Source: a virus. From it: 47,070 nucleotides of DNA. Positions 10,268 to 46,457 of the stretch are shown here, piece by piece; within the stretch, counting starts at the first letter, position 1; the number at the start of each line of letters is the position of its first letter. Under the pieces are notes generated by a model, which searched no databases, was not told the origin of the DNA, and saw only the letters and a program-made list of their open reading frames with translations. The DNA lies in IMG/VR virus record IMGVR_UViG_3300027909_000011, positions 1 to 47,070 of that record. One strand, written 5' to 3'. A program made the translations under genes and the position numbers.

Positions 10268-12255
10268 TATACAAACTCGCGGTCACGTAATGAACCCGCA
10301 GGTACTAATTGTACATCATAAAACGCCCATTCCAGGTCTGCTAATGAACGTCCCGATAATCCTGTCTGAGCCTGCCAGTAGACTCGTTGATGATCACTAA
10401 TACTAAAGGAACTAGCAGGAGCCAGACCACTCAACCCTGCATAGTAACTACGCATGAGGTCTGAGATTGTTCCTTGTTGTCCAGTTAGAATCTGTAACTT
10501 GGCGAGTTGCAGATCAGCAATACTCATTATACCTCCCGGCTGCACGCCACCCAAAACCACGTTTTCTGCGACCATACTCAAGAATGCATTATCAATGAAG
10601 ATATTATGAACTTGAGTAAGGTTAACATTGTCCGCAGTCATGGCTAGAACAGCATTAGCAATGATTAGATCGAGTTCCTGAGACAATGTTAAATTATCAG
10701 CAGTTACAGGAATATCAGCATTTTGAATAACTAAGATATGTTCCTGAGTAACATTTAAATTATCTGCTATCATAGCAATATCAGCATTTGAAATTGCTAA
10801 ATTAGCCTCAGTATTTAAAACAACATTCTCAGCAGATACACCTAAAGATGCATCTTGAATAACTAACTGGTGAACTTGAGTAAGGACAACATTTTCAGCA
10901 GAAACACCCAGAGAAGCATCGGCTACAGCCAATTGATGCTCTTGGGTTAGAACAACATTTTCTGCTGATACGCCTAAGGAAGCGTCTGCCGGTGCTAATG
11001 TAGGGGTGGTTACACCAAGGATTTCGATAGCATGACATCTAATAGCAGCGCCGCCAGCACCCGTAGTACCATAATTCCTAGTACCAGCAGCCTGTCCTAG
11101 CCAATAATGAGAGTTTTCTGTATAGTTAGCATCAGCAGAGTTTTCTACAGTATTTGCTCCACCAGGGGTTGGAGTTCCAACCGTTCCAGCATCAAAGTCA
11201 TAAGAAGCAAATCCTACGAAACTATTAGCATCTGCTGCTATAGAGACGACTTGAGTACTAGATGAAGTATAAGAAGTCCCAATATTACCAGTACCACCAG
11301 TACTGGCACCAGGTACTTGTATTGCCCAGGCGTGCCAAGTACCAGGAGTTCCACCGGACCTAGTAAGTGTAATAGTTAATGTGTGACTTCCTGCGCCCGT
11401 AATTGGTACTTTATAAATACCTAACCAGTCATCATTTGTTCCACTAAGGTCTTCTGTTTCATTTACAACAGTACCGATAGACCCTGAGGAGGTAATGACA
11501 ACATCTGTGATATCATTAGAAGAACCGAACTGGTCGCCACCAGCAAACACCCAAACAGTATCTCCATTGGCTAATCCGGTAAGAGCAATAGTCTTAGGAT
11601 TGGCTGTACTTCTAGCAGATTCGACTAGTTGCTTGACATTTGGTCCGGCTTTAGGACAAACAATCTCAGCAAAAGCTAATTGGGCTGCACCTTGAGAACC
11701 ATTTGGACCATTAACCCAGAATTCTCCTCGACCTCCGGAGGCCATTGAGCCAGTACCACCCTGACCAGCGGCATCATCGATCCATAGAGTAATTCTAAGA
11801 CGGTCACCATCAGATAAGGTAGTATCAGTTACATTTGCAGCGGAAACAGAAATCGTATCAGCAGAGCCACCAGCAGTGGTGCCCATTTCAGCGGCACCAT
11901 GATTAACGGTTTCATCTACAATTGTTGATTGAACTGTACCATCACCAGAAGTTCTTTCAATTCTAATAGTGGGAGCAACATTGTTGGCTGTAGCATTCTC
12001 ACGATCCCATAATGAACAAGTAATAGCACCAGCAATAGTCACTCCCCATAACTCAGGAGTGTAGAACGATACTGCCGTTCCATCTGTTCCAGCGGCACCA
12101 TCCGTCATTTGCAATGGAGCAGTTGGGCCAGTAACACTGTTTTTATTGAGATGGGTTGCAGAAGCGCCAGGTGTAAAGTCCGCTTTCCACTTTGTACCTG
12201 AGCCTGCTGTTACACCCGAATCTGCGGCAGCAGAGGTAAGATAGATATTCGACAT
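10252..12255 (-). CDS. Tail fibre / spike-like protein with C-terminal 22-aa tandem repeats
   Basis: 667-aa ORF rich in G/T/S/A. Residues about 423-570 are 6.7 tandem copies of a 22-aa unit (ADASLGVSAENVVLTQEHQLAV...). Confidence 0.6.
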   Translation of the reverse strand: MSNIYLTSAAADSGVTAGSGTKWKADFTPGASATHLNKNSVTGPTAPLQMTDGAAGTDGTAVSFYTPELWGVTIAGAITCSLWDRENATANNVAPTIRIERTSGDGTVQSTIVDETVNHGAAEMGTTAGGSADTISVSAANVTDTTLSDGDRLRITLWIDDAAGQGGTGSMASGGRGEFWVNGPNGSQGAAQLAFAEIVCPKAGPNVKQLVESARSTANPKTIALTGLANGDTVWVFAGGDQFGSSNDITDVVITSSGSIGTVVNETEDLSGTNDDWLGIYKVPITGAGSHTLTITLTRSGGTPGTWHAWAIQVPGASTGGTGNIGTSYTSSSTQVVSIAADANSFVGFASYDFDAGTVGTPTPGGANTVENSADANYTENSHYWLGQAAGTRNYGTTGAGGAAIRCHAIEILGVTTPTLAPADASLGVSAENVVLTQEHQLAVADASLGVSAENVVLTQVHQLVIQDASLGVSAENVVLNTEANLAISNADIAMIADNLNVTQEHILVIQNADIPVTADNLTLSQELDLIIANAVLAMTADNVNLTQVHNIFIDNAFLSMVAENVVLGGVQPGGIMSIADLQLAKLQILTGQQGTISDLMRSYYAGLSGLAPASSFSISDHQRVYWQAQTGLSGRSLADLEWAFYDVQLVPAGSLRDREFVYWNGL
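10546..10989 (-). repeat. Tandem repeat, 6.7 x 66 bp (22 aa) inside the fibre-like gene
   Basis: The first three units are nearly identical at DNA level, and later units diverge: ADASLGVSAENVVLTQEHQLAV / ADASLGVSAENVVLTQVHQLVI / QDASLGVSAENVVLNTEANLAI / SNADIAMIADNLNVTQEHILVI / QNADIPVTADNLTLSQELDLII / ANAVLAMTADNVNLTQVHNIFI / DNAFLSMVAENVVLGG. Confidence 0.9.
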
Positions 12256-12927: not shown

Positions 12928-14121
12928 TTAGCCTTCAATTAAGTCGTCAAGGAGACCATGAGAGTTACGACGGTGCGTACCAATCTCCGCGTACATAAAC
13001 ATCCGAGCCTCGTAGGCATCGAAGCCAATAACACGTTGCAGGTAAGAACCGTCTTCATCCATCCAACCCCAATCGTCTTCACGATAGAGCTTGATTTCCT
13101 TCTCATTAACAAACTTCATCTGGTTAAACGGCATATCCACGTCAATAACAACAGGAATATCACCATTATCGGTGGTGAAAGCAAGCCCCTTGAACCCGCC
13201 TTCAAATTCCTGAGTATTGACGAACCGACGATCAGTCTTCAACAGATTGAAGTAGGCACGCCGGACGCCGAGGTTAGAGAAAATAACGGTGGGAGCAGAA
13301 CCATTAACTCGAATGTCATCGGCAACCTTGATCATAAGGGCCTCAGTTAAAGCGCGGGGCGTACCACCGTTATTGTTAATAACGGATTTCCATACCGGCT
13401 CAACAGTCGGGTCAATGTTGTAAAGAGTACCTGTGTCCTTAATGATTGCTCCAAGACCGGTAACCTCTCGGTTAGTGTTACCAGTACGAACCACAACATC
13501 CGTGGCCACAATTGAAGCAGAACCATCAGCACCGTTATAAGTGACAACCTTGGTAGAAGTGTTAATAGCAGTAATTTGCCGGTTAGAGATACGAGTCGTA
13601 ACAAGAGTGATGTCCATGACATCAATCATCATTCCGACTTCGAGGTATTGAACAGTATTAACGGTAATGGTGTTAACACCATCAGCGGTTACCGAAGCAC
13701 GAACACCAGTACCAAATCCATAGAACTGGAAGTTAAGATCTTTAGCGAGGTCCCGCTTAAGTCCCTTAATTTCCTCATCAAGAGCCGAAGCAAAAGCCTG
13801 GTAGTTCTTATCAGCCAACTTCATAGTCTGGCCGGTAAGGTTAATACCACCGTACAGGTACTTTAGACCCACACGGGCGGCAGCAGTCTTTTGCTGACCC
13901 GGAGTCGGAAGGGCTTCGTTTTCATTTCGAGCACCGATACCGTGGTTACGACCGGTCCGAATTGGGAAAGTCACATAACGACCACCAACATCGTTAGTAA
14001 CACCTTCGGAAGTCTTCTCGATACGACGCATTCCGACGACGTCATAGTTTAGCTGGTCTTGCAGATCCTTTTCGTAAATTTCCTTAAGGATTGCGGAGAC
14101 CGTTGAAAGGGTGGCACCCAT
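12928..14121 (-). CDS. Major capsid protein
   Basis: 397-aa ORF immediately after the acidic scaffold-like ORF and the portal, with a strong hairpin downstream. The call rests on synteny and size (HK97-fold class expected). Confidence 0.75.
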   Translation of the reverse strand: MGATLSTVSAILKEIYEKDLQDQLNYDVVGMRRIEKTSEGVTNDVGGRYVTFPIRTGRNHGIGARNENEALPTPGQQKTAAARVGLKYLYGGINLTGQTMKLADKNYQAFASALDEEIKGLKRDLAKDLNFQFYGFGTGVRASVTADGVNTITVNTVQYLEVGMMIDVMDITLVTTRISNRQITAINTSTKVVTYNGADGSASIVATDVVVRTGNTNREVTGLGAIIKDTGTLYNIDPTVEPVWKSVINNNGGTPRALTEALMIKVADDIRVNGSAPTVIFSNLGVRRAYFNLLKTDRRFVNTQEFEGGFKGLAFTTDNGDIPVVIDVDMPFNQMKFVNEKEIKLYREDDWGWMDEDGSYLQRVIGFDAYEARMFMYAEIGTHRRNSHGLLDDLIEG

Positions 14122-15035: not shown

Positions 15036-17213
15036 CTACTCTGACTGTGACGTATCTTCTGGTATTGGATTAGGCCCCGGTGCGGCTCCTGGCTGAGTTG
15101 CTTGAGCCATTTCAGAACCAGGTGGCGCTTGCATTGGGGTATTTACATCAGTTGGAGGAGGCTGATTTCTTTGTTGCTCAGCAATACCAATCATCATTTC
15201 GGCTGTTGGCATTCCACCAATATGCGGGGCAGCAATAGATTCCATATGCTTCTGCACATGGACCTCAAACAGCAATTGCTTTGCAGGATCAAGTTGTTCA
15301 TAAGCCTGAGACTTACGGAACTTATTATGGATGTCAATATGAATAGCGTGATTATCAAATGTGTTGACTGGAATAACAGGTTCAGGCAACAGGGGCTTTC
15401 CAAATTCATCAACCTGAGGCATTGGTTCACCAGTCATTGGATCAGTAGGAAGTTCGAACATCTGCTCAATAAGGGCGTCATCCACATTCTGCATCTTAAG
15501 ATTTTCACGTCGAGCCTGAGCCTGATCAACCTGCACATTCTCGTACAATTTAACAATACCACCCATATCAAGGACTTGCATACCATCCTCAGGAGTGATA
15601 AAGCCCATCTTCATCCAGTCCGTAATTAATGCTTGCTTAGCGGCCTTAGAAGTTGGGAGAGCAGAACCAGCCTCAACACGAATATCTGTATTACCCTTAA
15701 GATCAGAACCTGCAAACATCGCAGCATCCCACGAACCATCAACACCAGTAATCTTGACAATTCTAGGAACATCCCAATACTGACCAATTAGTCCAAGGGA
15801 TTGACGGGCAACCTTTTCAATTCCAGCCTCAATTGAATCAACTTCGTGCGACAGCATAGAATCATCTTGCTCTTGGAGATAACTAATGGCTGTAGCCGCA
15901 GTAACACCAGGAGGAACTGATCCGCGAGTAACTTCATGCTGCCCTGAAAGATCATCAAAATCAGCAGTTAATTGCTGAACTTCATTAAGAACGTAGTTGG
16001 GGAGGGGAACTAAAGGAATAGGTTGCGGAGGTTGGAATCCCATCTTATAAGGAATCCATTGTCCCGGCTCGGTAGTAACCTTTTGGGGATCAGTTGAACC
16101 CATCTGGTAAATCATCTGAGGCTTAGCCATACGATTCTTGGCTTCAACAATTTGTGAACGAGTCCTATTGTATTCCCTTTGGATAGGGATAAGGTCCTCA
16201 ATTACAGATGTAGCATAGTATTTACCAGCAGGAATATGATCAAACTTAGAAATACAATATTCCCCATGCTCATAAGGGAACACAGGATAAAATTGAATAA
16301 TTTGCTCACCCGTCATGGTGACTACGCCACCCTCAGGGAAGTCCTTTAGACCACCAGGCTTAATCCACAACTCATGTACCAGGACTGAGTCATTATCCTG
16401 AGATGATCCCCCCACCAAATTAAGGAAAGCATCATTTAAAATCTCGTTCGCGCCCTTAGTATTTGGCTGGATAACTTGCCCATCCAGAGACTTCGGATAG
16501 TTTAACATCAGCCAGTCGGGAGTATGGGTCGCTGAGTGAATAATATAGGGCTGATCCTCAATTTGCGTTTCTCTTAGATCAGGAACATTAACATGAAAAG
16601 GAGTCAATGGTTTATAACAAATATCGCCTTCATAAGCAGCATCAGGTGCTGGTGTTGATACTTTGTAGTTATCCCAATACGTTTTCACATATCCGGTACC
16701 ACAAACTAACATCCACCATACAGCTTCTTTGAATACAGTATGAAGATTCTTGTCGTAATATAAAGATTCCCAGATTTGTTCACCAGCATTAGCGGCGAAC
16801 ATATCTTCATCTTCTGACGAAGCAGGAACAATACTAGCACTAGGCTTCTGAGACGTTAACTTAGCAAGTTCTCGGCGAATAATAGGACGAACCCTATTAA
16901 CTACCATACGAACACGCCAAGGAGGGGCAGGAGGAACGATTAAACGATTCCCAATGCCCCTAATATTTTGTGGTACAACATTTTGCTTCCCGAAATAGAA
17001 AGCCATATTCATATACCACTGCCGCTCGAATTGTGACCGAGCAGTCTTCATTTTATTATATAGCGTGTTAACAAGACTAGCCAGTTCTTCTGCCTGGCTA
17101 GTCGTTAACTTAACGCTTTCTAACGGATTAGTCGAAGGAAGGACCAAAGAGCCTGAGGGCTGCTTCGCCGTCTGGGTCAAAAGCTTCTTCCCCGATTCCG
17201 ATACTAGACTCAT
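15036..17213 (-). CDS. Portal protein
   Basis: 725-aa ORF upstream of scaffold and capsid. The N-terminal region QFERQWYMNMAFYFGKQNV resembles podoviral portal N-termini. The C-terminus is acidic and Pro-rich. Confidence 0.75.
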   Translation of the reverse strand: MSLVSESGKKLLTQTAKQPSGSLVLPSTNPLESVKLTTSQAEELASLVNTLYNKMKTARSQFERQWYMNMAFYFGKQNVVPQNIRGIGNRLIVPPAPPWRVRMVVNRVRPIIRRELAKLTSQKPSASIVPASSEDEDMFAANAGEQIWESLYYDKNLHTVFKEAVWWMLVCGTGYVKTYWDNYKVSTPAPDAAYEGDICYKPLTPFHVNVPDLRETQIEDQPYIIHSATHTPDWLMLNYPKSLDGQVIQPNTKGANEILNDAFLNLVGGSSQDNDSVLVHELWIKPGGLKDFPEGGVVTMTGEQIIQFYPVFPYEHGEYCISKFDHIPAGKYYATSVIEDLIPIQREYNRTRSQIVEAKNRMAKPQMIYQMGSTDPQKVTTEPGQWIPYKMGFQPPQPIPLVPLPNYVLNEVQQLTADFDDLSGQHEVTRGSVPPGVTAATAISYLQEQDDSMLSHEVDSIEAGIEKVARQSLGLIGQYWDVPRIVKITGVDGSWDAAMFAGSDLKGNTDIRVEAGSALPTSKAAKQALITDWMKMGFITPEDGMQVLDMGGIVKLYENVQVDQAQARRENLKMQNVDDALIEQMFELPTDPMTGEPMPQVDEFGKPLLPEPVIPVNTFDNHAIHIDIHNKFRKSQAYEQLDPAKQLLFEVHVQKHMESIAAPHIGGMPTAEMMIGIAEQQRNQPPPTDVNTPMQAPPGSEMAQATQPGAAPGPNPIPEDTSQSE

Positions 17214-18392: not shown

Positions 18393-19946
18393 CTACCATT
18401 CTCCACCCATATACTCATCAGGATTTGTGATAAACCATCCATTGGGATCAACTTTGGTATTTGCCTTGAGAAGTCTTTTATCAATTACTGGATGACGATT
18501 AGGACTAAGCAAATCAACCCCGACCGCCGGTAGAAGATGGGTCTCGACCTTTACCTCTGGGATACTCAAAGGAGTCAGGTCAGGCATAACAGTAAAGAAG
18601 TATCGGAGGTCGTCCATAGCGTGATCATCTTTTTTATGCGGAACATCGTATGGATTGTTATCCCGTTGTGATTTCTGATTAGACCAGGTCTTCCATCGAT
18701 ACTTTGGTGCCTCACGGATTAAGTTATCACAGTTGGCGGTCACATGCCATCGAGGAGGACGATCCTCACGGTAATCCATATAGGCGTTTACCTTGTTAAT
18801 ACCGGTGACTACATCATTAACCCCAGCAGCTAATTCGATTCCATGCATCATGTATTCGGCTTGAACTGAGGTACCAGTAACGGGATTACGCTGTGCTAAT
18901 GCAGGATCGCATACTCGCATAACAGGTACGCGGCCACCAAAGGACTGTTCAATAAGCTTAACTTGAGTTGCATGCTCAGCAATAACCATTTCTCGTTCGT
19001 AGTGCTCCATGAAGGTAATAACTTCTCCATCAGGAGACACGAGATGCCAATGCCAAGAGGTAGGATTATTAAAACCATGATCAACAGACGCATAAATATC
19101 CCAGCCTTGGGGCAATTCAGTTAATGGTGGAATTACATGAACCCCAGTATTAAATTTTTTGTAGATAACTCCACCCCGCCGAATGAACTGCCCACTGATA
19201 CGAGCAACTCGATCATCCTCGGGTAAGGAGTTAACGAAATCTTGAATTTCGGATTTCCCAATGTAGGGATTGTCCCAAATAGATACTTCGATGGTTTGGA
19301 TATCACTATCAACGGAACTGATTGAGGGTAGGTAAATATCATCATACATCCATTGCATTCCGAGAACGGGAGTTAATGTCATCCACCAAGAACCACCCGT
19401 ATCGACCAGTCGGGCGATACATTCGATATAGATGTCAAGAGGGGGTTCCTCGTCAAAATGTACAAAATGCCGAGATGTCCCTGCAAATTTTTGAACGTCT
19501 TGTTCATAGGACATAAATTCAACAAACGAGCCGTTTTCGAAGTAAAGGGTTCTTGGCTGGACGTCGTACGCAGAATACCACGAACCTCCCCGCAAGTAGC
19601 TTGGTGGACACCAACGCTGGAATTCTGGAATGATGATTTTGTCAATACCATCGTTAAAGTCAACACCTACGACACGTCCCCTCACAGGAGGTTCGGGCGT
19701 TTTAATATGCTTCTGAGTTCCTTGTAACCAATCGATATCTTCGACAACTCCACCGGTTGTCTTTCCACTACGGTTACCACCAATATAGAGACGCTTCTTT
19801 TTAGGAGAAGTGTGGAATTTTATCTGCTTCTCGTGCGGTACATAACCTAAAATATTAGGGCGGGATGCTTGTATCTGCAACTTCTCTTGAAGTTGCAGAA
19901 TTAAATCATTTGCTGTGAGTTCTGGTTCTCTACTTTTACGAGGCAT
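18393..19946 (-). CDS. terL: Terminase large subunit
   Basis: 517-aa ORF with Walker A GGNRSGKT, Walker B-like HFVHFDEEP, and a C-terminal nuclease-like region (ASVDHGFNNPTSWHW...HAMDDLRY). Confidence 0.9.
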   Translation of the reverse strand: MPRKSREPELTANDLILQLQEKLQIQASRPNILGYVPHEKQIKFHTSPKKKRLYIGGNRSGKTTGGVVEDIDWLQGTQKHIKTPEPPVRGRVVGVDFNDGIDKIIIPEFQRWCPPSYLRGGSWYSAYDVQPRTLYFENGSFVEFMSYEQDVQKFAGTSRHFVHFDEEPPLDIYIECIARLVDTGGSWWMTLTPVLGMQWMYDDIYLPSISSVDSDIQTIEVSIWDNPYIGKSEIQDFVNSLPEDDRVARISGQFIRRGGVIYKKFNTGVHVIPPLTELPQGWDIYASVDHGFNNPTSWHWHLVSPDGEVITFMEHYEREMVIAEHATQVKLIEQSFGGRVPVMRVCDPALAQRNPVTGTSVQAEYMMHGIELAAGVNDVVTGINKVNAYMDYREDRPPRWHVTANCDNLIREAPKYRWKTWSNQKSQRDNNPYDVPHKKDDHAMDDLRYFFTVMPDLTPLSIPEVKVETHLLPAVGVDLLSPNRHPVIDKRLLKANTKVDPNGWFITNPDEYMGGEW

Positions 19947-20284: not shown

Positions 20285-20829
20285 GTGAGACTACCTGCCC
20301 AAATAACAGACAACGCCATACCCTCCGCAAATGTATTACCATCTGCGTTAAGCGCAGCACCTGAGTTCTGGAACAAAGCGCCAGTAATAACATCATTAGT
20401 AACAAAAGCGAAGAAATCAGAAATCTTAACTCCGTTAGCACCACCAGTGAAACTAAGGTCTACAATGGATAATAAACTAGTTCCATTCTTACGAATATCT
20501 CCACGACGTACACCTGTAGCATTGGCTGCGAATGAGGCATTTAAACTAACATAATAGATTCCATCTTTTCGAATAGTAATAGCATCGTTAGTAAGGTTTA
20601 CCATTGCCCCCTCAGGACGGGCAGCATAGGTATCAAATCCAGTAGTATTAAAAGCTGCAAGAGTTAAAGCGTTATTAGGAACTGATTGGGCTACTGAAGC
20701 CGTCATCTTTGCTGCGGGAATAAAATTAGCATCAATCTTATCCGAATTTGCATTGATTAAAGCAACTGAAACAAGCTCGGCCCCATCTGGTTTGGATAGG
20801 ATTAACCGAGGCGTCGTAGTGACAGTCAT
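20281..20829 (-). CDS. Fibre / receptor-binding-like protein
   Basis: 182-aa ORF. The N-terminus TTPRLILSKPDGAELVSVALINANSDKIDANF resembles conserved fibre N-termini. The remainder is predicted beta-rich. Confidence 0.4.
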   Translation of the reverse strand: MTVTTTPRLILSKPDGAELVSVALINANSDKIDANFIPAAKMTASVAQSVPNNALTLAAFNTTGFDTYAARPEGAMVNLTNDAITIRKDGIYYVSLNASFAANATGVRRGDIRKNGTSLLSIVDLSFTGGANGVKISDFFAFVTNDVITGALFQNSGAALNADGNTFAEGMALSVIWAGSLT

Positions 20830-21485
20830 AAATTAGCCTCTAACTCAGGAGGGGACTGAACGACTTCAACTCCCATATTAGCACCAGAGTCAAGAGCAGT
20901 AAGTAATTTTAGATCATGAGCAATTGCCATCAAGGCGGCGGGGTCTTGGACATGCGTTGCAATGATTTCAAAGATTCGGTTAATAAGTGCTCTAATATCG
21001 ACGCCTGAGTCCTTACCTGTGTATCGTCCTGTAATCTCGTAATAGAATTTAAGCGCGCCAATATCACCCGATTGTACTCGATCAATGAGCGCAGCATGCG
21101 CTTCTGGGATCGAATCTCCAAGTATTTGTTCCGCTCGCTTTGCATAGTACTCCTTAAAGGAGGAGTTCTGCTTCCATCCATCCCAAATCTTAGTAGTGAT
21201 TCCTAATTCACTTAGTCGCTTTTTATAGCTTCGCCCATCTAATGGGTCTAGCATCGTCTGAATTGCCGTGATCTGGTCTGGTGTTAAATCCCTTCCGGCT
21301 ACAGCCGGCATCCCTCTGGCTTCGAAGGATTTCACTACCAATTCATCACTGAGAATCTCGTTCAATTGCCTAGTTGTCAGATCGAACTTCTCCCGAATTT
21401 CCTCCGGCGGCGGAAGTCGGCCGTCTCCAAACCAGGACATCTCACAATAAGTAATGATACGTTGAGCTAATTGATCTAATTTCAT
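20826..21485 (-). CDS. Hypothetical protein, candidate small terminase / DNA-binding subunit
   Basis: 219-aa helical ORF near the head of the leftward operon. The call is from position and general character (…ALKFYYEITGRY…) only. Confidence 0.35.
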   Translation of the reverse strand: MKLDQLAQRIITYCEMSWFGDGRLPPPEEIREKFDLTTRQLNEILSDELVVKSFEARGMPAVAGRDLTPDQITAIQTMLDPLDGRSYKKRLSELGITTKIWDGWKQNSSFKEYYAKRAEQILGDSIPEAHAALIDRVQSGDIGALKFYYEITGRYTGKDSGVDIRALINRIFEIIATHVQDPAALMAIAHDLKLLTALDSGANMGVEVVQSPPELEANL

Positions 21486-22003
21486 ATCCGACGATACCTT
21501 CCACTAATCCTCCATGTAGTTACTGCATCTTCTAAAGGTGCATAATCCCATTCGATAGCATTACATGCAACTCGGAGTTGTTGAGGAACTCCACGCTGGT
21601 CATTGTTTTCGTAATCCCTGATCGGGTCTGGATGTACGCATATTCTTTTACAAAATCCAATTCTAGATAGTCCTTGAGATTCTCTATAGAATACCAGGGG
21701 ATTCGTATAGCCTGCATATCCACTAAGTACTTCCTTGAAGGATTGATACTCATTAGCGAAAGTTTCTCTTTTATTTTTAACTAATTGGTGATAACTCGAA
21801 ATTAAATCCTTAGTTGATACTCCGTAATACCACCCTAATTGATCTAGAAATCTACGTGGTGGTTCAGTGAATAATGCCTGCTCTAACCGGACAATCATAT
21901 GCCTACTAACACCAATGGTTGCAGCAATCTCTGCTTGGGTGTATCCTGCTGCTACCCGATAGGAGGCCCAGGTATGAACCCCAACCATATCCTCTATAGC
22001 CAC
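21482..22003 (-). CDS. Helix-turn-helix (XRE-like) DNA-binding protein, first gene of the leftward arm
   Basis: HTH segment GYTQAEIAATIGVSRHMIVRLEQ plus a second HTH-like segment LSRIGFCKRICVHPDPIRDYE. The start is moved to GTG 22003, preceded by GGAAGGAG with a 6-nt spacer. The track ATG at 22084 has no ribosome-binding site. Confidence 0.6.
   Translation of the reverse strand: MAIEDMVGVHTWASYRVAAGYTQAEIAATIGVSRHMIVRLEQALFTEPPRRFLDQLGWYYGVSTKDLISSYHQLVKNKRETFANEYQSFKEVLSGYAGYTNPLVFYRESQGLSRIGFCKRICVHPDPIRDYENNDQRGVPQQLRVACNAIEWDYAPLEDAVTTWRISGRYRRI
21919..21947 (+). promoter_or_regulatory. Candidate rightward promoter TTGCAG-N17-TATCCT
   Basis: Read from sequence. It is followed by AGGAGG (21961-21966) and ATG 21974, and it faces the leftward promoter at 22056..22029. 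Confidence 0.3.
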
Positions 22004-22261
22004 AATGCACTCCTTCCTCTCATATCTGATGGTACACGAAACGATATTCTTGTCAAGGAGAAAAGGATAACGAGTGCTACACATCGGGACTACTCGATTC
22101 GGCTACAGGGGGTGTTGTTATTTGCAGTCTGGGATGCAGCGAAGAAAATAGGTGTTACACCAGGAGAGTATATGAAGTCTGCTATAGAAAAGGATTTGGT
22201 ACGTGGCGGTTGGCTTCCTAAATGGTGGTATACAAGGAAATTTGGGCGTGTGCAGGGATAA
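21974..22261 (+). CDS. Candidate ribbon-helix-helix (Arc/CopG-like) protein
   Basis: 95-aa ORF with AGGAGG 7 nt upstream. It occupies otherwise unannotated DNA from 22004 to 22261. YSIRLQGVLLFAVWDAAKKIGVTPGEYMKSAIEKDLVRGG fits a strand-helix-helix layout like Arc. It is uncertain because it overlaps the leftward promoter. Confidence 0.35.
   Translation: MNPNHILYSHNALLPLISDGTRNDILVKEKRITSATHRDYSIRLQGVLLFAVWDAAKKIGVTPGEYMKSAIEKDLVRGGWLPKWWYTRKFGRVQG
22029..22056 (-). promoter_or_regulatory. Leftward promoter TTGACA-N16-TACCAT
   Basis: The minus strand reads TCCTTGACAagaatatcgtttcgtgTACCATcag. It lies about 20 nt upstream of the GGAAGGAG ribosome-binding site and GTG 22003. Confidence 0.55.
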
Positions 22262-22443
22262 AGGGGTGCTACACTATCAATTGTGGGGTTATCTAGTAAT
22301 AGATAGGGGACTACGTCCAGTGGAAAAGGCGCCAAAATTCCCGACAACATGATAATCGATCATACGTTCGATTAAGATGGCAAAGAAATAACGACGCAAT
22401 TAAATGCGCCGTTAATGGTTAATACCTAATGCATCTGCGCCAA

Positions 22444-22468: not shown

Positions 22469-23845
22469 TTATGAAAGCTTGGTTGCCAGTACTGCGGTGC
22501 GAGTCGCTAACCTAAACATTGCGACTCTGTTATTGCCAATGTCACTAACACCATTGGCGCTTTCCTCAGAATCGAAATCGATTTCGGCACGCGGACCAAT
22601 ACGGAATCTCTGTGCTTGTCCGAAATCCTCTTCATTGCGCACTGCAATAACACGCGACCGCCTGGCATCGTCGGCATAAATGCGCTCATTGTAGAACCAA
22701 TCCATGCCGGGAATGGTAATGCGATCATTGCCAGTGGCGATTACCACTAGGTCGTATTGACGGCCATTGATCAATACACCACCACTAGGCAATGCAATGG
22801 GAGAAACAACTTGGTTGAATACATTCAACTTCTGATTTCCCATTGCGTCCGGCCGGAGATAGCGACCAATTGCACGATAGCGACCACGGTTCGCCCGACA
22901 GTAATCCTCGTAATCACTCTCTACATTGTTGGCGAACCAATCAAGACGATTCACCGTGTCCAATTCTGCCGCGCTCATGAATGATTGCGGCGCCAATCCG
23001 AGAAATGACTCAACAGCACATTTCCCGGAATCTCCTCCACCAATTACGGCGACATTGCGGAGACCACGCAATGGCCACATTCCCGTCATACGGTTCATGA
23101 ATTGCGGGAATGTAAGAATGGATTCACCATTTGCCCGATCACCATTCTTTGGATCACCGAGACCGGTTGAATCAATTACCCTCTTGGCAAGAATAACGCG
23201 CTCATCATTCGTACCATAACTGCTATAGGTAACTGCGAATGTGTCGTCCCCATCATCCACACTAATTACCTTTGCACTCGGAAATACCCGGGTGTATCCG
23301 GATTGTGCGAATGTCAGCCGGATGATGAATGCCATATCGGCATTCGTTTGGTACTCCGCATTCGAGAGTGCAGACGCTTGAATGGGAGCGCCGGGAAGGT
23401 AATTCAACTGCGCCTCGTTATCACGCGAAATACCCGCAAATCCCCGGCGGTTGCGTGAATTGAGATTGAACACTCCCGGATATGTACCATCCTGACCGGG
23501 AATGGCAAACACCCCACCAATAGTCGGAGCGCTTTCGAGAATTAGCGGCATCTGCTTTCCGAGTAATACCCGGGTTGCCGCATAAACAGCTGCATGGAAA
23601 CCGCTACCAATGATCAATTCATCGGTATTACCCGGAATGTTAACAAGGGAACGGTTAGTGCGAAATGCCCTATCCATTGCCTTGTTTGCCACATCGCGAG
23701 CGCCGGAGTCCAGTGCAATTCCCGTCAACTGCGCCTGCAATTCTGACGGGAATTCATTTACGCGCTCCATAATCATCGATAATCCCGGAGACCGAGTCTC
23801 CCGGACCTTTTCGATAATGCGCGCAACAAGATTACTTGGCTGCAT
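22469..23845 (-). CDS. FAD/NAD(P)-binding flavoprotein (class B monooxygenase-like or pyridine-nucleotide-disulfide-oxidoreductase fold)
   Basis: 458-aa ORF with two dinucleotide-binding motifs (ELIIGSGFHAAVYAA and VAVIGGGDSGKCAVE) and a C-terminal DLVVIATGND motif. This pattern resembles the Lys/Orn N-monooxygenase family. The first about 70 residues are an extension of unknown function. Confidence 0.7.
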   Translation of the reverse strand: MQPSNLVARIIEKVRETRSPGLSMIMERVNEFPSELQAQLTGIALDSGARDVANKAMDRAFRTNRSLVNIPGNTDELIIGSGFHAAVYAATRVLLGKQMPLILESAPTIGGVFAIPGQDGTYPGVFNLNSRNRRGFAGISRDNEAQLNYLPGAPIQASALSNAEYQTNADMAFIIRLTFAQSGYTRVFPSAKVISVDDGDDTFAVTYSSYGTNDERVILAKRVIDSTGLGDPKNGDRANGESILTFPQFMNRMTGMWPLRGLRNVAVIGGGDSGKCAVESFLGLAPQSFMSAAELDTVNRLDWFANNVESDYEDYCRANRGRYRAIGRYLRPDAMGNQKLNVFNQVVSPIALPSGGVLINGRQYDLVVIATGNDRITIPGMDWFYNERIYADDARRSRVIAVRNEEDFGQAQRFRIGPRAEIDFDSEESANGVSDIGNNRVAMFRLATRTAVLATKLS

Positions 23846-23847
23846 TT

Positions 23848-23889
23848 CCCTTACCTTTCATTTCGAATTTAGGCATGACTAGGTAAGGG
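23848..23889 (-). promoter_or_regulatory. 5' leader hairpin sequestering the ribosome-binding site of the flavoprotein gene
   Basis: The mRNA reads CCCTTACCT-(24 nt)-AGGTAAGGG-AA-AUG. The 9-bp perfect stem pairs the only purine-rich Shine-Dalgarno-like element. Confidence 0.45.
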
Positions 23890-23892
23890 TTT

Positions 23893-23910
23893 GGAAATGG
23901 CACTATTGAA
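23893..23910. repeat. Right arm of the inverted repeat bracketing the flavoprotein gene
   Basis: GGAAATGGCACTATTGAA is the reverse-complement partner of 22444..22461. It lies 48 nt upstream of the ATG. Confidence 0.8.
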
Positions 23911-24150
23911 TTGACAAATTGCGTGCGAGCGCGGCAATCCCCGCTAGGTCGTCACCGCTTCGCTGGCTTGGAACATGTTCCAAGCCTAATCGTTTCCATC
24001 GTTGTAGACCAAATTTGTCCCACTATTTGGGCAGCTGTCTCATTTGATTTTTGACTACCCAAAGGTAGACTTGATTCATTACAGAAATACGGACAGTGTC
24101 GGCCGGCACTACTCTCCGTAATGGAGAGTAGTTGGCGCATGCCGCCAGGT

Positions 24151-24320
24151 GGAAACTGTCGGTCGATCTGTCTATCTGTCTATATGCCTGAGCGGAATCT
24201 GTCTGTCGAATTGCTAAATGAAATCACTGTAAGCCGATACCTCTGTCAAAATAGGAATTAATTTAAAATAGCTACAGGGATAATCAGATAACTTTGATTT
24301 CGAACATGACAAACTGTCAG
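24151..24320 (+). repeat. Array of same-orientation CTGTC boxes
   Basis: CTGTC occurs at 24156, 24168, 24176, 24199, 24203, 24243 and 24314. ATCTGTCT occurs three times (24166, 24174, 24197). GTGGAAACTGTCgGTC at 24149-24164 recurs at 25713-25728. Confidence 0.7.
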
Positions 24321-24345
24321 ACAAAGTGACGGAGAGTGCGTAATG

Positions 24346-24371
24346 GTGTAGGGGTATCTATACCCCTACAC
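24346..24371. promoter_or_regulatory. 26-bp palindrome (operator- or origin-like)
   Basis: GTGTAGGGGTAT-ct-ATACCCCTACAC has 12-bp perfect arms. There is no T-run on either side. Confidence 0.6.
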
Positions 24372-24395
24372 AACACCATACCGCCCTATCTCCGG

Positions 24396-24624
24396 TTTGA
24401 CCTCGTTTGACACCACAAAACCGCAGGTCAGGGGCTTGTCGAACACTTTGTCATACATTGTCAGTCAACGCAGTTGACAACCACTACCCTGCATTGCGTG
24501 CATTGCACTACACACAGTAGCATTGACAACTAAACTGACTACACAGAGTAGGTTTGACATGCTCTCCGAACTGGCTTGACCTGGATTGACAGGCTTGTCA
24601 CGAGAGGCAGCATGACCCTTGTCA
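24396..24624 (+). repeat. Array of 12 same-orientation TTGAC/TTGTC boxes (iteron- or -35-like)
   Basis: Boxes start at 24397, 24407, 24436, 24448, 24458, 24474, 24523, 24554, 24576, 24586, 24595 and 24619. Several neighbours are 9-12 bp apart. Confidence 0.7.
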
Positions 24625-24648
24625 CAGGACAGAACTCACCAGTAACTT
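24619..24648 (+). promoter_or_regulatory. Early promoter candidate TTGTCA-N18-TAACTT
   Basis: Read from sequence. The -10 box fits the actinobacterial TANNNT pattern. Confidence 0.45.
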
Positions 24649-24660
24649 AGGGGCTTATCC

Positions 24661-24688
24661 TTTACACTCCGTAGTGAAGTGGTAACTT
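24661..24688 (+). promoter_or_regulatory. Early promoter candidate TTTACA-N16-(TGg)TAACTT
   Basis: It has an extended -10 (TGGTAACTT) and the same TAACTT hexamer as the unit 40 bp upstream. It lies about 55 nt before ATG 24744. Confidence 0.5.
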
Positions 24689-24743
24689 AAAATTATGTCC
24701 TCTACCCCTTGTGTACCACCCGATATGGCTGCATACTTGAGAC

Positions 24744-25580
24744 ATGACCAACCACCCCGAACACACAGAAAAGGATCAGGTCATGACCGAGCAGACCACG
24801 GCTCCTGTAGCCGAAAACCCTGAGGCCACTACCCCGGCAATTGCTGAGGCAGACCTCCCCGATTTGGCTAAGGCCCTGATTATGGCCGCGCGTCCCGTTA
24901 GGGATAATGCGGTCAAGGTCTCAGCTAAGATTTCCGCTGCTGGCAATATCGGCGAGACACTTACCGAGGCAGTCGAAAAGTCCGAGGACCCCGAAATCGT
25001 GGGTTGGCGGACCAAGATCGAAAAGGCAAATGCGCTTATCCTTGACCTGACCAATAAGGCGCAGGAAAAGGTTCGGCCCACTCTCGACATTCCCTCGGAT
25101 GAGGATTTGGAGAAGCTGGATACCGAGTATCGCGAACTTGCCCAGCAAATCAACGCGTACAATAACGTATTCGGCAACGAAGTTTCGCGGTCGGATAACG
25201 TTCCGGATGACGCCAAGGTTTCAATTTACACTTACATTGGCGATTTGCCCGGTCGTAGGCGTGGTGCTCGTCCGGGGCAGGGATCAGGTACAGCCCGGCC
25301 GCGAGTTAAGAGTGTTGAATTCACTCATGACCTCGCGGGCGAAAAGGATTGGCAGAAGGTCGGCACGGACGACTCTTCTACCTTTACTCACCTTGCCGCA
25401 GTAGTTAAGCGAGAGTCCAAGCAAGAGGTTACCGCTGCTGATTTCCACGAGCCGTGGCTTGCTGCATATCCTACGGCTGGCGGCGACTGGCAGAAACTGC
25501 CGGAGGTCACTACCTTTAGTTACTCGACTACCGATTCTGAGGGTAAGACTTTCCAGTACATGGTTCGGGTTACCAAGTAA
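24744..25580 (+). CDS. Early protein of unknown function (acidic N-terminus), apparently monocistronic
   Basis: 278-aa ORF. An alternative start at ATG 24783 is preceded by AAAGGA. The gene is bracketed by promoter candidates upstream and by two hairpins downstream, one of them a canonical terminator. Confidence 0.7.
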   Translation: MTNHPEHTEKDQVMTEQTTAPVAENPEATTPAIAEADLPDLAKALIMAARPVRDNAVKVSAKISAAGNIGETLTEAVEKSEDPEIVGWRTKIEKANALILDLTNKAQEKVRPTLDIPSDEDLEKLDTEYRELAQQINAYNNVFGNEVSRSDNVPDDAKVSIYTYIGDLPGRRRGARPGQGSGTARPRVKSVEFTHDLAGEKDWQKVGTDDSSTFTHLAAVVKRESKQEVTAADFHEPWLAAYPTAGGDWQKLPEVTTFSYSTTDSEGKTFQYMVRVTK

Positions 25581-25669: not shown

Positions 25670-25705
25670 AGGGCAGGGAGTGTTAGCTCCCTGCCCTTTT
25701 CTTTT
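25670..25705 (+). terminator. Rho-independent terminator
   Basis: AGGGCAGGGAG-tgttag-CTCCCTGCCCT followed by TTTCTTTTATT. Confidence 0.85.
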
Positions 25706-25743
25706 ATTCCGCGTGGAAACTGTCTGTCTAGGAGCCATCCGTT

Positions 25744-26364
25744 ATGGAACAGTATGTTGGTATCCCACTCGAAGAAAAGGTAATGAAGTGGGCATACGAT
25801 AATCCGTTCTTCACTCACAAAGACTTAGCCGAAATCTTTCCCAATGAACATTGGCGCCGTATCTATCGTGCCATGAATGAACTTGAGAAGGCTCATCGTA
25901 TTAGATTCACTGGTACATACAAAGGTAAGCAGCGAGTCTTCACGACTCTAGAAGTAAGTGAATTGCCGACGATTCTGGACGCAAAAGGTAACTCGGCGGT
26001 CATTAGTCAGTATGTGAAGAACATGGCGCACCTATATGCCAATCATCCATTGACTTGGAATAGGTTAATGGAGTTGAATGAGTTCCCAATTACCGTTCTG
26101 CGCATGTTCCTCATTCCTCAATTAGAGGGTAAAGAACAGAGGCAACTCTATCATCAGGTAGTCAGTGAGTTAGTTAAATACCGTGCCTCATTGACAAGCC
26201 TGCTAGAATCAGTAGATAGAATTATCAAACACCCGACTATGAGCGGGGATGTTGATCATTTTCTCAGCGTATTTGATGGCGATGATAAAGAACTTCCTTC
26301 GCCCATTGACATGAATAACGCCAAACTCTGGTATAATAAGAATTGGACTCATGAAGATGAGTAA
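25744..26364 (+). CDS. Winged-helix DNA-binding-like protein
   Basis: 206-aa ORF. FTHKDLAEIFPNEHWRRIYRAMNELEKAHRIRFTGTYKGKQRVF fits a helix-turn-helix plus wing. TAGGAG lies upstream. Confidence 0.45.
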   Translation: MEQYVGIPLEEKVMKWAYDNPFFTHKDLAEIFPNEHWRRIYRAMNELEKAHRIRFTGTYKGKQRVFTTLEVSELPTILDAKGNSAVISQYVKNMAHLYANHPLTWNRLMELNEFPITVLRMFLIPQLEGKEQRQLYHQVVSELVKYRASLTSLLESVDRIIKHPTMSGDVDHFLSVFDGDDKELPSPIDMNNAKLWYNKNWTHEDE

Positions 26365-39005: not shown

Positions 39006-39412
39006 GAACCACTGTAGAGTTCTAACAGGACGGGACTGGCGGCCCAGATGCTCCTGTTAGATCAAGAGGGTGGACTAGCTAAATACAAGGAAGGACTGGG
39101 CCCCGTCGATTTGCCGGGAATAAGCCACGCAGTCACTTAGCCAGGTTGCTAGTCAGTAAATGAAGTACTCTGGGTACAAACTACCAGCCCTCTCTTTAAT
39201 TCAATAGAGGAACGCCATCGCAGGGCGGTTTACGGTTCCTACCTGCGATGGGGTTGGAGATAATGATTTTGCCAACTGCCATTATCTCCAACGGCTACAG
39301 GGCTTTAGGATAGGACTTCCCGGAAACTGTGAAATAAGGGATACGTCGGGACCTAAAGTACTGCCCTTGGTGGATTCGACCCCACCTAAAGGTCACTGGC
39401 CCTGTAGCACAA
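39006..39412 (+). ncRNA. Candidate structured non-coding RNA or leader region upstream of tRNA-Leu
   Basis: 407 nt without an ORF. It has perfect stems of 10 bp (39021-30/39052-61), 10 bp (39215-24/39242-51) and 13 bp (39253-65/39280-92). A long-range stem (39294-39309 with 39385-39408) is built on the GGCTACAGGG/CCCTGTAGC pair. Confidence 0.3.
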
Positions 39413-39495
39413 GCCGATGTGGCGGAATGGTAGACGCAGCGGACTTAAAATCCGTGGTACACTAGTACATAAGGGTTCGAATCCCTTCATCGGTA
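39413..39495 (+). tRNA. tRNA-Leu(UAA): tRNA-Leu (anticodon UAA), class II with a long variable arm
   Basis: Folded by hand: acceptor GCCGATG/CATCGGT, anticodon arm GCGGA-CTTAAAA-TCCGT, 15-nt variable arm with a GTAC stem, T arm AAGGG-TTCGAAT-CCCTT. No CCA is encoded. Confidence 0.85.
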
Positions 39496-39517
39496 CGTCC
39501 ATCAATAAAGGAGAGAA

Positions 39518-40156: not shown

Positions 40157-40228
40157 TGGGGATTAGTGTAATTGGCAGCACGAGAGATTTTGGATCTCTT
40201 AGTTAAGGTTCGAGTCCTTAATCCCCAG
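40157..40228 (+). tRNA. tRNA-Gln(UUG): tRNA-Gln (anticodon UUG)
   Basis: Folded by hand: acceptor TGGGGAT/ATCCCCA, D arm GTGT-AATTGGCA-GCAC, anticodon arm AGAGA-TTTTGGA-TCTCT, T arm TAAGG-TTCGAGT-CCTTA. Confidence 0.8.
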
Positions 40229-40261
40229 CGAGTAACACCCCAACTCGAAGGAAGGAGGGAA

Positions 40262-45712: not shown

Positions 45713-46209
45713 GGGAAAGCACCAAAAACGCTCGACACGATGCCGCTATCGCCGAACTATTAGGCATCAGCGTAGAAGAAGTTCAATCTCAGAGAATTAA
45801 AGAAGAAAGGGATGCAAAAGCCCGGGAAGCCCAAGCCGTCTTACTTTTCCTTGAGCACCCGGACAAATTTATCAGCAAGTTTTGTGATAAGTGCCACCAA
45901 ATCTTTATGACATCTTATCAGTTTGTATCCGTATGTTCCTCTAAGTGCCGAATTGCTGCTCTGGCAGATGTTGGCATTGATTGGAACCCTATGAGGACAG
46001 CGGACGAAAGATGGAAGCGTGCACAGATTCCTGTTGATTACACGATTCCACCTGATGCTTTGGCGATTCTTATGCAATTAGCCCAAGATCAGACTCAGCG
46101 GCCTCCTTCCGAGAACGGTCAAGGTAATCAACAATTGAAAATCGACTCTCGTACAGACCTAGAGATTTGGCTTGACGAATTAGATCCGCTTGAAGTTGAG
46201 GAGAATTAG
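45709..46209 (+). CDS. Hypothetical protein with a Cys motif
   Basis: 166-aa ORF with a GTG start forming a GTGA overlap. It contains CDKCHQ...CSSKC. Its last 140 nt overlap the convergent whiB ORF. Confidence 0.5.
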   Translation: MRESTKNARHDAAIAELLGISVEEVQSQRIKEERDAKAREAQAVLLFLEHPDKFISKFCDKCHQIFMTSYQFVSVCSSKCRIAALADVGIDWNPMRTADERWKRAQIPVDYTIPPDALAILMQLAQDQTQRPPSENGQGNQQLKIDSRTDLEIWLDELDPLEVEEN

Positions 46210-46411
46210 ATATCATTGAATGACGCTCTTTGAATGTGGTTCCACCCCAGATACCCCATTCATCATAAATCAGAGCATACTGAAAGCACTCGCTCGCTAC
46301 AGGGCATGTATTACAGATACGCTTAGCACGTTTTGGGTTTGTCTTAAAGGGCTCAGAAAATTCAGGTTCACGACAAACTGCTTCTAACCGCCACTCCTGA
46401 ATGGCTCTCAT
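46070..46411 (-). CDS. whiB: WhiB-family Fe-S transcription factor
   Basis: Four Cys (C...CNTCPVASEC) followed by GIWGGTTFKER. Start moved to ATG 46411 (MRAIQEW...), because upstream codons are encoded by the 16-bp palindrome. There is a roughly 46-aa C-terminal extension. Confidence 0.8.
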   Translation of the reverse strand: MRAIQEWRLEAVCREPEFSEPFKTNPKRAKRICNTCPVASECFQYALIYDEWGIWGGTTFKERHSMISNSPQLQADLIRQAKSLGLYESRFSIVDYLDRSRKEAAESDLGLIA

Positions 46412-46420
46412 AAGACAAAG

Positions 46421-46457
46421 ATAACCCCTCTTGACACCACCTGTCAAGAGGGGTTAT
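46421..46457 (-). terminator. 16-bp perfect palindrome: terminator-like hairpin that also contains promoter-like boxes for whiB
   Basis: ATAACCCCTCTTGACA-ccacc-TGTCAAGAGGGGTTAT. On the minus strand it is followed by CTTTGTCTT. The same strand reads TTGACA-N18-TATCTT-N6-ATG(whiB). Confidence 0.5.

Follow-up and report, generated by a model that had tools for sequence, protein, structure and literature searches.

A conserved gene-free region in the genome of a Jasmine-like podovirus as a candidate terminal-repeat junction

Introduction

Podoviruses of actinobacteria are little studied. Jasmine was described in 2017 as the first sequenced podovirus of actinobacteria, and the sections of its description consulted here report an experimentally determined terminal repeat without discussing the flanking sequence elements (PMC5513430). 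Here, we describe a gene-free, repeat-rich region of a 47,070-nucleotide (nt) stretch of viral DNA (IMG/VR record IMGVR_UViG_3300027909_000011, positions 1 to 47,070; hereafter the window), located between the minus-strand structural genes and the plus-strand early genes. An earlier note, made from the letters alone, had recognised ordered repeat arrays in this region and proposed a replication origin or an early control region. We compared the region with the corresponding parts of cultured and metagenomic relatives.

Results

Genome layout and relatives of the phage

The closest cultured relatives of the window, judged by capsid (43-46% identical) and TerL (37-46% identical) proteins, are podoviruses of actinobacteria, namely Arthrobacter phages Jasmine and Adat, Microbacterium phage Shocker, and Cellulosimicrobium phage DS1; no other cultured relatives were found. 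The gene order of the window agrees with that of all four phages, and the features of the group were all found: the capsid, portal, and terminase proteins are homologous, the genome has two divergent arms, and a gene of WhiB type lies where they converge. Based on the capsid and TerL relatives, the WhiB gene, and the gene order, the window is a Jasmine-like podovirus with a predicted actinobacterial host. Its G+C content (approximately 46%) is low, as in Jasmine and Adat, whereas that of Shocker is 63%. The plus-strand arm, starting at 24783, comprises early and replication genes encoding an SNF2 helicase, a PD-(D/E)XK nuclease, a Sak4-like ATPase, a primase-helicase, and a family-A polymerase. 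Neither a phage-encoded RNA polymerase nor an integrase or repressor module was found among the window proteins scanned.

Relatives were collected by an alignment-based metagenome scan, which gave nine loci with the first early gene, and by TerL, which gave 59 viral contigs (individual contigs are designated by L numbers). The proteins flanking the region have few relatives, and no close relatives were found through them in IMG/VR. No DNA similarity of the region to known phages was detected, and neither an exact-pattern scan for the 26-base pair (bp) palindrome nor a metagenome scan for the promoter-like site P3 (both listed below) returned matches. Near-identical contigs of the window come from JGI metagenomes; four of them differ by one single-nucleotide polymorphism and one indel, and therefore show too little variation for conservation analysis.

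A 127-bp overlap of the ends closes the 47,070 bases into a circle of 46,943 bp, on which the two arms had been described as converging roughly opposite the region. This circle rests on the assembly overlap and is doubted here because the cultured relatives are linear with terminal repeats; the overlap is most likely an assembly artefact, assumed to equal the k-mer length of the assembler.

The main features, from left to right, are as follows (aa, amino acids).

110-23845, minus: structural genes, including capsid (12928-14121), portal (15036-17213), and TerL (18393-19946)
20826-21485, minus: candidate small terminase subunit
22320-22353, plus: TGGAA...GACAACATGAT block following the p81 gene, candidate outer boundary (E) of a terminal repeat
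22469-23845, minus: gene for a 458-aa Rossmann-type oxidoreductase-like protein with its own terminator (22389-22414, minus), within the putative repeat
23901-23917, minus: motif M2, TTGTCAATTCAATAGTG, approximately 55 nt before the 458-aa gene begins, a promoter-like family motif
23965-23986, no strand: perfect 22-bp palindrome, GGCTTGGAACA/TGTTCCAAGCC
24044-24071, plus: P0, weak promoter-like site reading rightward, TTGATT-N16-TAGACT, a consensus match only
24108-24132: hairpin with a 10-bp stem directly before M1, at the place of a terminator hairpin in relatives
24149-24164 and 24192-24207, plus: two M1 copies, GTGGAAACTGTCGGTC and GCGGAATCTGTCTGTC, flanking TCTGTCTATCTGTCTA; together the CTGTC array
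24247-24278, plus: AT-rich tract merging into TAAAATAGCTACAGG, matching M2-like and M3 motifs of relatives
24346-24371: perfect palindrome of 26 bp, a candidate for the inner boundary (S) of a terminal repeat
24394-24624, plus: arrays of TTTGACA-type boxes on both sides of the core
24417-24434, plus: conserved core of 18 nt, AAAACCGCAGGTCAGGGG
24619-24648, plus: P1, TTGTCA-N18-TAACTT
24661-24688, plus: P2, TTTACA-N16-TAACTT, with TGn
24709-24737, plus: P3, TTGTGT-N17-CATACT, conserved in L064, L065, L067, and L079-L087
24783-25580, plus: first early gene, 265 aa
25670-25697, plus: intrinsic terminator, followed by a third M1 copy (25713-25728)
25744-26364, plus: gene for a 206-aa protein, probably with a winged helix at its N-terminus, a candidate for reading the boxes
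41405-43186: primase-helicase
46070-46411: WhiB-like gene (Pfam PF02467, 54.5 bits)

The region is gene-free and non-random

The gene-free interval recognised in the earlier note is real, although its right limit has to be moved: judged by the start of its homologues and by an AAAGGA ribosome-binding site in front of it, the first plus-strand gene starts with the ATG at 24783 and not at 24744, which gives an interval of 23846-24782. This interval contains no gene: six-frame comparison revealed neither protein-level similarity to the spacers of relatives nor any match in the region to their small early genes, as would be left by decayed genes. The 1-bp indel polymorphism of the near-identical contigs lies within the sole open reading frame of the region (62 aa) and also alters the spacer of P0.

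All of the sequence features reported by the earlier note are present, and they occur far above chance. The hairpin at 24108-24132 is perfect (10+5+10), as is the palindrome at 24346-24371 (12+2+12), and the AT-rich tract is found at 24247-24270; a further perfect palindrome, at 23965-23986, had been overlooked. Seven CTGTC boxes lie on the plus strand at 24156, 24168, 24176, 24199, 24203, 24243, and 24314, and they include ATCTGTCT three times; seven such boxes within 163 bp compare with three elsewhere in the genome and four in shuffled sequences. Twelve TTGAC/TTGTC boxes occupy 24397-24624, with spacings that include 10, 12, 10, 10, and 9 bp; these 228 bp contain 12 boxes, whereas the richest stretch outside the region contains 4 and none of 200 shuffles exceeded 6. 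Five of the six plus-strand TTGWC-N3-7-TTGWC pairs of the genome and both minus-strand pairs are found in the region. Inverted repeats that are perfect over arms of 10 nt or more number nine in the genome, and three of these fall within these 0.9 kb (shuffle mean, 0.28). Within the box arrays, a 19-nt double-box repeat occurs at 24394-24412 and again at 24573-24591, and a 22-nt repeat with a CTAC-N5-GTAG mini-hairpin occurs at 24507-24528 and 24538-24559. Rightward of 24434, the TTGTC members of the array are more aptly described as inverted, TGTCAAA-type copies of TTTGACA, the arrangement shown by relatives. The interpretation of the region as non-coding, non-random, and functional is supported.

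The two promoter-like units sharing TAACTT (at 24643 and 24683) correspond to P1 and P2, and together with P3, the third site, which is conserved in relatives, they make up the predicted early promoters of the region. The idea that each TTGACA could act as a sigma-70 promoter of its own was dropped; for no box except that of P1 is a -10 element present at 16-19 nt.

The 458-aa gene and the divergence point of the arms

The region had also been described as the point at which the two transcription arms diverge. This does not hold for the ancestral arrangement. The 458-aa gene is missing at this place in most relatives whose contigs cover it (L064, L067, L072, and L079-L087; it is present in L074), and the ancestral divergence is placed at 21974-22003. 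There, the XRE-type helix-turn-helix (XRE-HTH) gene (21482-22003, minus; Pfam HTH_31 and HTH_3) and the small p81 gene (21974-22261, plus, 95 aa; possibly encoding a ribbon-helix-helix protein) start inside each other with a 30-bp overlap. L064 and L067 share this arrangement, and in other relatives the two genes are adjacent and divergent.

The 458-aa gene is inserted in reverse orientation together with its own M2 motif and terminator. Its product shows two Rossmann-type GxGxxG motifs, recognised by eye in the translation, and no Pfam family. It has approximately 350 homologues, including proteins 46-50% identical encoded in Micromonospora, Dactylosporangium, and Actinoplanes (Micromonosporaceae) genomes and several from unrelated phage contigs. 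Since its homologues occur in unrelated contexts, the gene was dropped as a guide to the region. In one of these unrelated phage contigs, L068, the 0.9-kb non-coding stretch after the gene has arrays of its own (1470-1640 and 2140-2340), comprising six copies of TTCCAAC and runs rich in A, of the type (A)6-7CGA.

An ordered module is conserved in relatives

The arrays are conserved, and the motifs of the region recur in the same order in at least ten relatives. Read in the early direction, the series comprises M1 (TGGAA), a promoter, M2 (TTGAGAAyTnAATAG), a perfect inverted repeat, boxes, the core, boxes again, and a promoter; in the window, its elements lie at 24149/24192, 24264, 24346, 24417, and 24619-24737. 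The module is collinear in the window, L079-L084, Jasmine, and Adat, with a partial form (imperfect repeat, core, and boxes) in L083 and L085.

M1 has three sites in the window with at most one mismatch to GGAAACTGTCTGTC (24151, 24194, and 25715), and its exact 14-mer recurs in L065. In relatives, a terminator followed by TGGAAAAAC-N3-TGGAwww...CTGTCTGTC is found both before and after the first early gene, and in DS1, TGGAAAC...TGGAAAC follows a terminator. M2 (TTGwsAAyTnAATAG) precedes start codons by 50-60 nt in L067, L084, and L086, and it is also located inside the module in L079-L085 and in the terminal repeats of Jasmine and Adat. The AT-rich tract of the window resolves into an M2-like TAAAATAG (24264) and an M3 motif, GCTACAGG (24271), and the form AATTCAATAG / GCTACAGG is common to relatives.

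A side observation concerns the promoter of this series. L067 and L079-L084 possess a near-invariant strong promoter, TTGACGTGTAyCA-N10-TAnnnT, between M1 and the palindrome-core module (for example, L080, 3654-3682); the window is without it, and its P3 shares the GTGTACCA part. The terminator at 25670-25697, which precedes the third M1 copy, has its inner hairpin inverted relative to the near-identical contig L004 (GAGTGTTAGCTC vs GAGCTAACACTC), a hairpin flip polymorphism.

The spacing from the start of the inverted repeat to the core (CCGC) is 73-75 nt in five phages (the window, L079, L080, L081, and L084). Perfect inverted repeats of relatives take the form GTGTGACCCTC-TATAA-GGGTCACAC in L080 and L081 and AGGGGCCCT-N7-AGGGCCCCT in L079, and one is also found in L084. 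The 10-mer CCGCAGGTCA of the core occurs 13 times in 1 Mb of fetched DNA, with approximately two occurrences expected; 10 of the 13 fall in early-region DNA that is non-coding, distributed over nine phages (the window, L018, L019, L024, L033, where it is found twice, L062, L079, L083, and L085), and the rest in coding or unexamined DNA. L080 and L081 have the core variant CCGCTGGTCA.

The core always lies between short boxes, which are usually inverted across it, and the boxes vary by lineage while the core is constant. TTTGACA boxes are found in the window, L083, and L085, the latter two having 13-15 TTGAC/GTCAA boxes around the core, with fewer in L079 and L081; the other lineages use CTACTTG (L019 and L062), TGGATC (L024), GATCAC (L033), or CACTTTG (L018). 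Comparison of box type with the small terminase, XRE-HTH, p81, 265-aa, and 206-aa proteins gave no clear covariation.

In relatives, the palindrome-core-box part follows the first early gene and lies directly before the gene of a winged-helix protein of approximately 205 aa; in the window, these two are separated by the first early gene. By synteny, this gene, which in all relatives directly follows the core-plus-box module, corresponds to that of the 206-aa protein of the window. The two protein families, A6 (206 aa) and A8 (approximately 205 aa), are connected by an hhalign probability of 43% (E = 2.5e-4), and A8 matches MarR/Lrp-type winged-helix chains (E ~1e-4). For the 206-aa protein itself, PDB and family searches gave generic winged-helix hints only, and a single-sequence AlphaFold model was unusable (pLDDT 40). 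The N-terminal part of the 265-aa protein is weakly similar to the Lsr2-like gene of the Jasmine terminal repeat (hhalign 56%, E = 1e-4, 63 columns).

Mapped DNA ends of cultured phages lie inside the equivalent motifs

Jasmine, Adat, and Shocker all have linear records, and their exact terminal repeats, which measure 1330, 1551, and 484 bp, respectively, are located where the arms diverge. Reading Jasmine and Adat in the early direction gives, in order, a TGGAA motif, a promoter, TTGAGAACTnAATAG, an inverted repeat with 11-bp arms, GGATAG boxes, a core-like centre, inverted boxes, a TTGACA-N17-TACGCT promoter, and the early genes. The centre of Adat reads AAAAACCGC-TAGATCTA-GGGG and that of the window AAAACCGC-AGGTCA-GGGG, at the same place.

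The mapped left end of Jasmine and Adat falls inside the spacer of the inverted repeat, at ACCCCTCTACCAT/CACTTCGTTAAGGTAGAGGGGT (...ACCCCTCTACCAT/CACTTCG..., the slash marking the end), approximately 66-71 nt from the core; the palindrome centre of the window is approximately 59 nt from its core. The end of Shocker lies at the centre of GACC/GGTC. The other mapped (right) end, in the early direction, is CTGGAAC...GGCAACATG in Jasmine and Adat and ATGGAATC...TTACAACATGAT in Shocker, so that (C/A)TGGAA...CAACATG is common to the three cultured phages. These right ends align column for column with GTGGAAAAGG...GACAACATGAT of the window (22320 to 22353) and with the first base of contig L082, and the outer-end motif TGGAA-N13-18-CAACATG is accordingly present at 22320-22353. 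A non-coding TGGAA-N18-GACAACATGAT block (22305-22368 of the window) recurs in L064, L067, L074, L075, and L079-L087, persists even where the proteins of relatives are 35-45% identical, and is conserved in all eight relatives whose contigs cover the place. The distance between the E block and the palindrome centre is 2038 bp in the window; four relatives have distances of 2145, 2002, 2099, and 1801 bp, despite differing genes between the two sites.

Six independent metagenome contigs have an end at a TGGAA (M1-type) site: L065, L082, and L085 begin 1-2 nt before it, and L072, L073, and L004 stop 15-34 nt after it, the end of L004 corresponding to window position 25747. Such contig ends may be genuine, as termini or nicks of the DNA, or they may have arisen in assembly, at points where co-occurring strains carry different cassettes.

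Discussion

A probable terminal-repeat junction

Because the equivalent module of Jasmine and Adat holds a mapped end of virion DNA, we consider it more likely than not, from comparative sequence analysis, that the region comprises the inner part and the inner boundary of a direct terminal repeat, followed by an end-recognition module and then by the early promoters. That the stretch from 22320 to approximately 24358 is a terminal repeat of about 2 kb, with the palindrome at 24346-24371 as its inner boundary, we regard as somewhat better than an even guess. Virion DNA would then begin at about 22320 with GTGGAAAAGG...GACAACATGAT (boundary E), and the repeat of approximately 2.04 kb would span the 458-aa gene and motifs M2, M1, and M3 before ending in the palindrome (boundary S). 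Approximately 60 bp further on, the core flanked by TTTGACA-type boxes would serve as the end-recognition site. A phage DNA-binding protein, for which the small terminase subunit and the 206-aa winged-helix protein are candidates, would load on the boxes, and the core, through its fixed offset of 73-75 bp (approximately seven helical turns), would position cleavage, nicking, or end duplication at the palindrome in concatemers. Host RNA polymerase would start early transcription at P1-P3, just inside unique DNA, as at the TTGACA promoter of Jasmine. That the module acts in packaging, rather than in staged entry or regulation, is likewise what we infer.

Several observations weigh against this interpretation. 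The ends of this phage are deduced from those of relatives, and the closure of the contig into a circle is uninformative in this respect. The inverted repeat of Jasmine has a 13-nt spacer and its C-rich arm first, whereas the palindrome of the window has a 2-nt spacer and its G-rich arm first; therefore, the equivalence between the two is positional and not sequence-based. Other M1 copies (24149, 24192, and 25713) or inverted repeats (23965 and 24108) could be the true boundaries. In the window, the module precedes the first early gene, whereas in relatives it follows that gene, and in distant relatives it lies only 90-150 nt upstream of the winged-helix gene, a proximity that fits an operator or an origin equally well. 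Small-terminase identity fails to track box identity in L018, L019, and L062.

The known counterpart nearest to the region is found at the junction in Jasmine, Adat, and Shocker, which is unannotated. Jasmine and Adat share with the window the gene layout, the size, a similar G+C content, and the motif order, including the AAAACCGC...GGGG core; Shocker also has the same gene layout and size, and all three have the same TGGAA...CAACATG block at the mapped right end. In contrast, their proteins are only 37-46% identical to those of the window, the boxes of Jasmine and Adat are TATCC rather than TTTGACA, and the inverted-repeat spacer is 13 nt rather than 2 nt. The repeat of Jasmine and Adat carries an Lsr2-like gene, whereas the putative repeat of the window carries the reversed 458-aa gene and the relative of the Lsr2-like gene lies after the module.

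The nearest described systems are the repeat region of T5 and the cos and pac sites. A constant core with lineage-specific boxes resembles the pattern of cos and pac sites: the pac site of P1 has hexamers TGATCA/G on both sides, that of SPP1 is organised as pacL-pacC-pacR, and lambda has a conserved cosN and a specific cosB, so that between the cos sites of lambda and phage 21 the boxes change with the lineage and the centre is kept. The module of the window would share with them a conserved centre with short, putatively protein-binding boxes on both sides, and the boxes of L033 and L024 contain GATC. However, cos and pac sites lie in or next to the small-terminase gene, whereas the module of the window is 2.9-3.8 kb from it, the presumed cut would lie approximately 60 bp from the core and not within it, and the phage would form exact terminal repeats instead of headful or cohesive ends. 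T7 is likewise a podovirus with exact terminal repeats, arrays of boxes of approximately 7 bp adjoining the repeat (reportedly the short-repeat arrays SRL and SRR of Dunn and Studier, 1983), and strong early promoters for the host polymerase near the entering end. T7 differs in its 160-bp repeats, in having no core and palindrome at fixed spacing, and in the later use of its own RNA polymerase, which the window does not encode.

If the region is a terminal-repeat junction, a sequence rule for genome ends would follow, with TGGAA...CAACATG at one end and a palindrome approximately 60 bp from a conserved core at the other, by which metagenomic "circular" contigs of this clade could be linearised correctly. 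The strict 73-75 bp geometry would provide defined cis elements for studying how exact terminal repeats form. It would also imply swapping of cargo inside the repeat, with an Lsr2-like gene in relatives and a reversed oxidoreductase-like gene in the window.

A possible operator array

An array of operators is the alternative that we take most seriously, although we consider it unlikely. The boxes would bind the 206-aa winged-helix, XRE-HTH, or p81 protein and repress or time P1-P3, with the core and the palindrome as further sites. The module directly precedes the winged-helix gene of approximately 205 aa in every relative, the boxes are lineage-specific, as are the winged-helix, XRE-HTH, and p81 proteins, and the arrays of the window lie at about -30 to -250 of P1. 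In relatives, a strong TTGACGTGTA...TAnnnT promoter lies on one side of the arrays and the gene on the other, as in a roadblock geometry. However, the core sequence is kept even though the winged-helix proteins are barely alignable between subclades, and its orientation with respect to the gene is flipped between subclades, which would be unexpected for a promoter-linked operator. An operator also leaves unexplained the fixed spacing between palindrome and core and the mapped ends in the Jasmine/Adat module. Operator and end functions are not mutually exclusive and may coexist.

A lambda-type switch, with tandem palindromic operators of approximately 17 bp that overlap divergent promoters and are located between a repressor gene and a cro-like gene, was not found: the boxes are asymmetric 5-7-mers, and the XRE-HTH gene and its divergent partner lie 2 kb away and overlap. 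PhoB/OmpR-type sites, lambda CII-type direct-repeat sites, and T7-primase GTC sites were considered and dropped, as the boxes of relatives differ around the same core.

A replication origin as an alternative

The proposal of a replication origin in the earlier note gained no independent support, and we regard an origin as doubtful. On this view, a phage initiator, of which the winged-helix protein is one example, would use the boxes as iterons; unwinding would occur at the palindrome or in the AT-rich tract, and there the primase-helicase would load. As in iteron origins such as lambda ori or plasmid oriV with Rep, clustered boxes of the same orientation, an AT-rich tract, and a palindrome occur together, and in relatives a gene for a DNA-binding, winged-helix protein is adjacent. 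A strong promoter lies 250-330 nt upstream of the module in relatives, reminiscent of transcription-primed origins, which are known from T7 and T4.

The cumulative GC-skew minimum, proposed as a check, does lie at 24-25 kb; however, it coincides with the switch of the coding strand, with which the skew changes sign, and is therefore not independent evidence. Repeat-rich divergence regions should not be called origins from skew alone. The arrays cannot be equated with iterons, which are direct repeats of approximately 17-22 bp in at least three copies with a spacing of approximately 22 bp, whereas the boxes of the window are 5-7 bp long and irregularly spaced (9-49 bp), and the 19-nt and 22-nt repeats have only two copies each. 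The AT-rich tract is just 24 bp long and corresponds to a sequence motif common to relatives, no extended AT-rich unwinding element is present, and the core is G+C-rich. With at most two mismatches to the actinobacterial DnaA box TTGTCCACA, 121 sites were counted genome-wide (133 expected), only three of them, all weak, in the region, and a DnaA-box cluster as in T5 or oriC was rejected for this lack of enrichment. The replication genes are 17-19 kb distant. The winged-helix gene follows the module in relatives, and searches of its product found no similarity to known initiators.

Less probable alternatives

The region might instead be a new kind of element, and not a packaging site, that couples genome entry with the start of replication: the repeat would enter first and express its cargo, either the Lsr2-like or the oxidoreductase-like protein, the module would retain the DNA, and the winged-helix protein encoded by the next gene would then release it and recruit the primase-helicase. 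We think this improbable. Such an element would combine a T5-like two-step entry with an origin, in a group where neither is known.

A stop or pause signal for staged entry, similar to that of T5, appears still less credible to us. In this model, by analogy, the repeat enters first and expresses its genes, and the arrays and palindromes halt transfer until the products act. The layout matches that of the T5 injection stop signal (iss), which lies where the terminal repeat ends on its inner side, in 1.6 kb of non-coding DNA: as in repeat region 3 of T5, a long non-coding stretch would lie at the inner boundary of the repeat, and an ordered, conserved series of repeats and palindromes was found, with the boundary position derived from relatives in the case of this phage. 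To our knowledge, two-step entry has not been reported for podoviruses of this group. T5 is a siphovirus of E. coli with 10-kb repeats and shows no sequence similarity to the window; the paired DnaA boxes that define its signal, located within inverted repeats, are absent here, and the model depends on the same presumed terminal-repeat boundary. In Jasmine, the repeat contains an entire Lsr2-like gene, situated before the arrays (PMC5513430), which would suit staged entry.

It is very improbable that the region acts as an RNA element, whether a long structured leader or a non-coding transcript starting at P0 (or, in relatives, at their strong promoter), in which the palindrome and box pairs would form hairpins: although approximately 500 nt downstream of that promoter are untranslated and inverted boxes can pair around the core in some relatives, two alignments (the second weak, with palindromes not in register) gave no consensus structure or covarying pairs, Rfam matches stayed at chance level with no family assigned, the 2-nt loop is unfavourable, and the box distances vary.

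Other sequence elements of the window

The longest perfect hairpin of the genome (16-bp arms; 46421-46457, ATAACCCCTCTTGACA-CCACC-TGTCAAGAGGGGTTAT) is located 9 nt upstream of the WhiB-like gene and holds an inverted pair of the TTGACACCAC box, the same box as that beside the core at 24407. An M2-like motif, AATTCAATAGAG, lies at 39198-39214 (plus), approximately 200 nt upstream of a tRNA-Leu gene (39413-39496), and a tRNA-Gln gene is found at 40157-40229. A 66-bp tandem repeat (2.6 copies, 71% matches) is contained in a 667-aa structural gene at 10815-10983 (minus).

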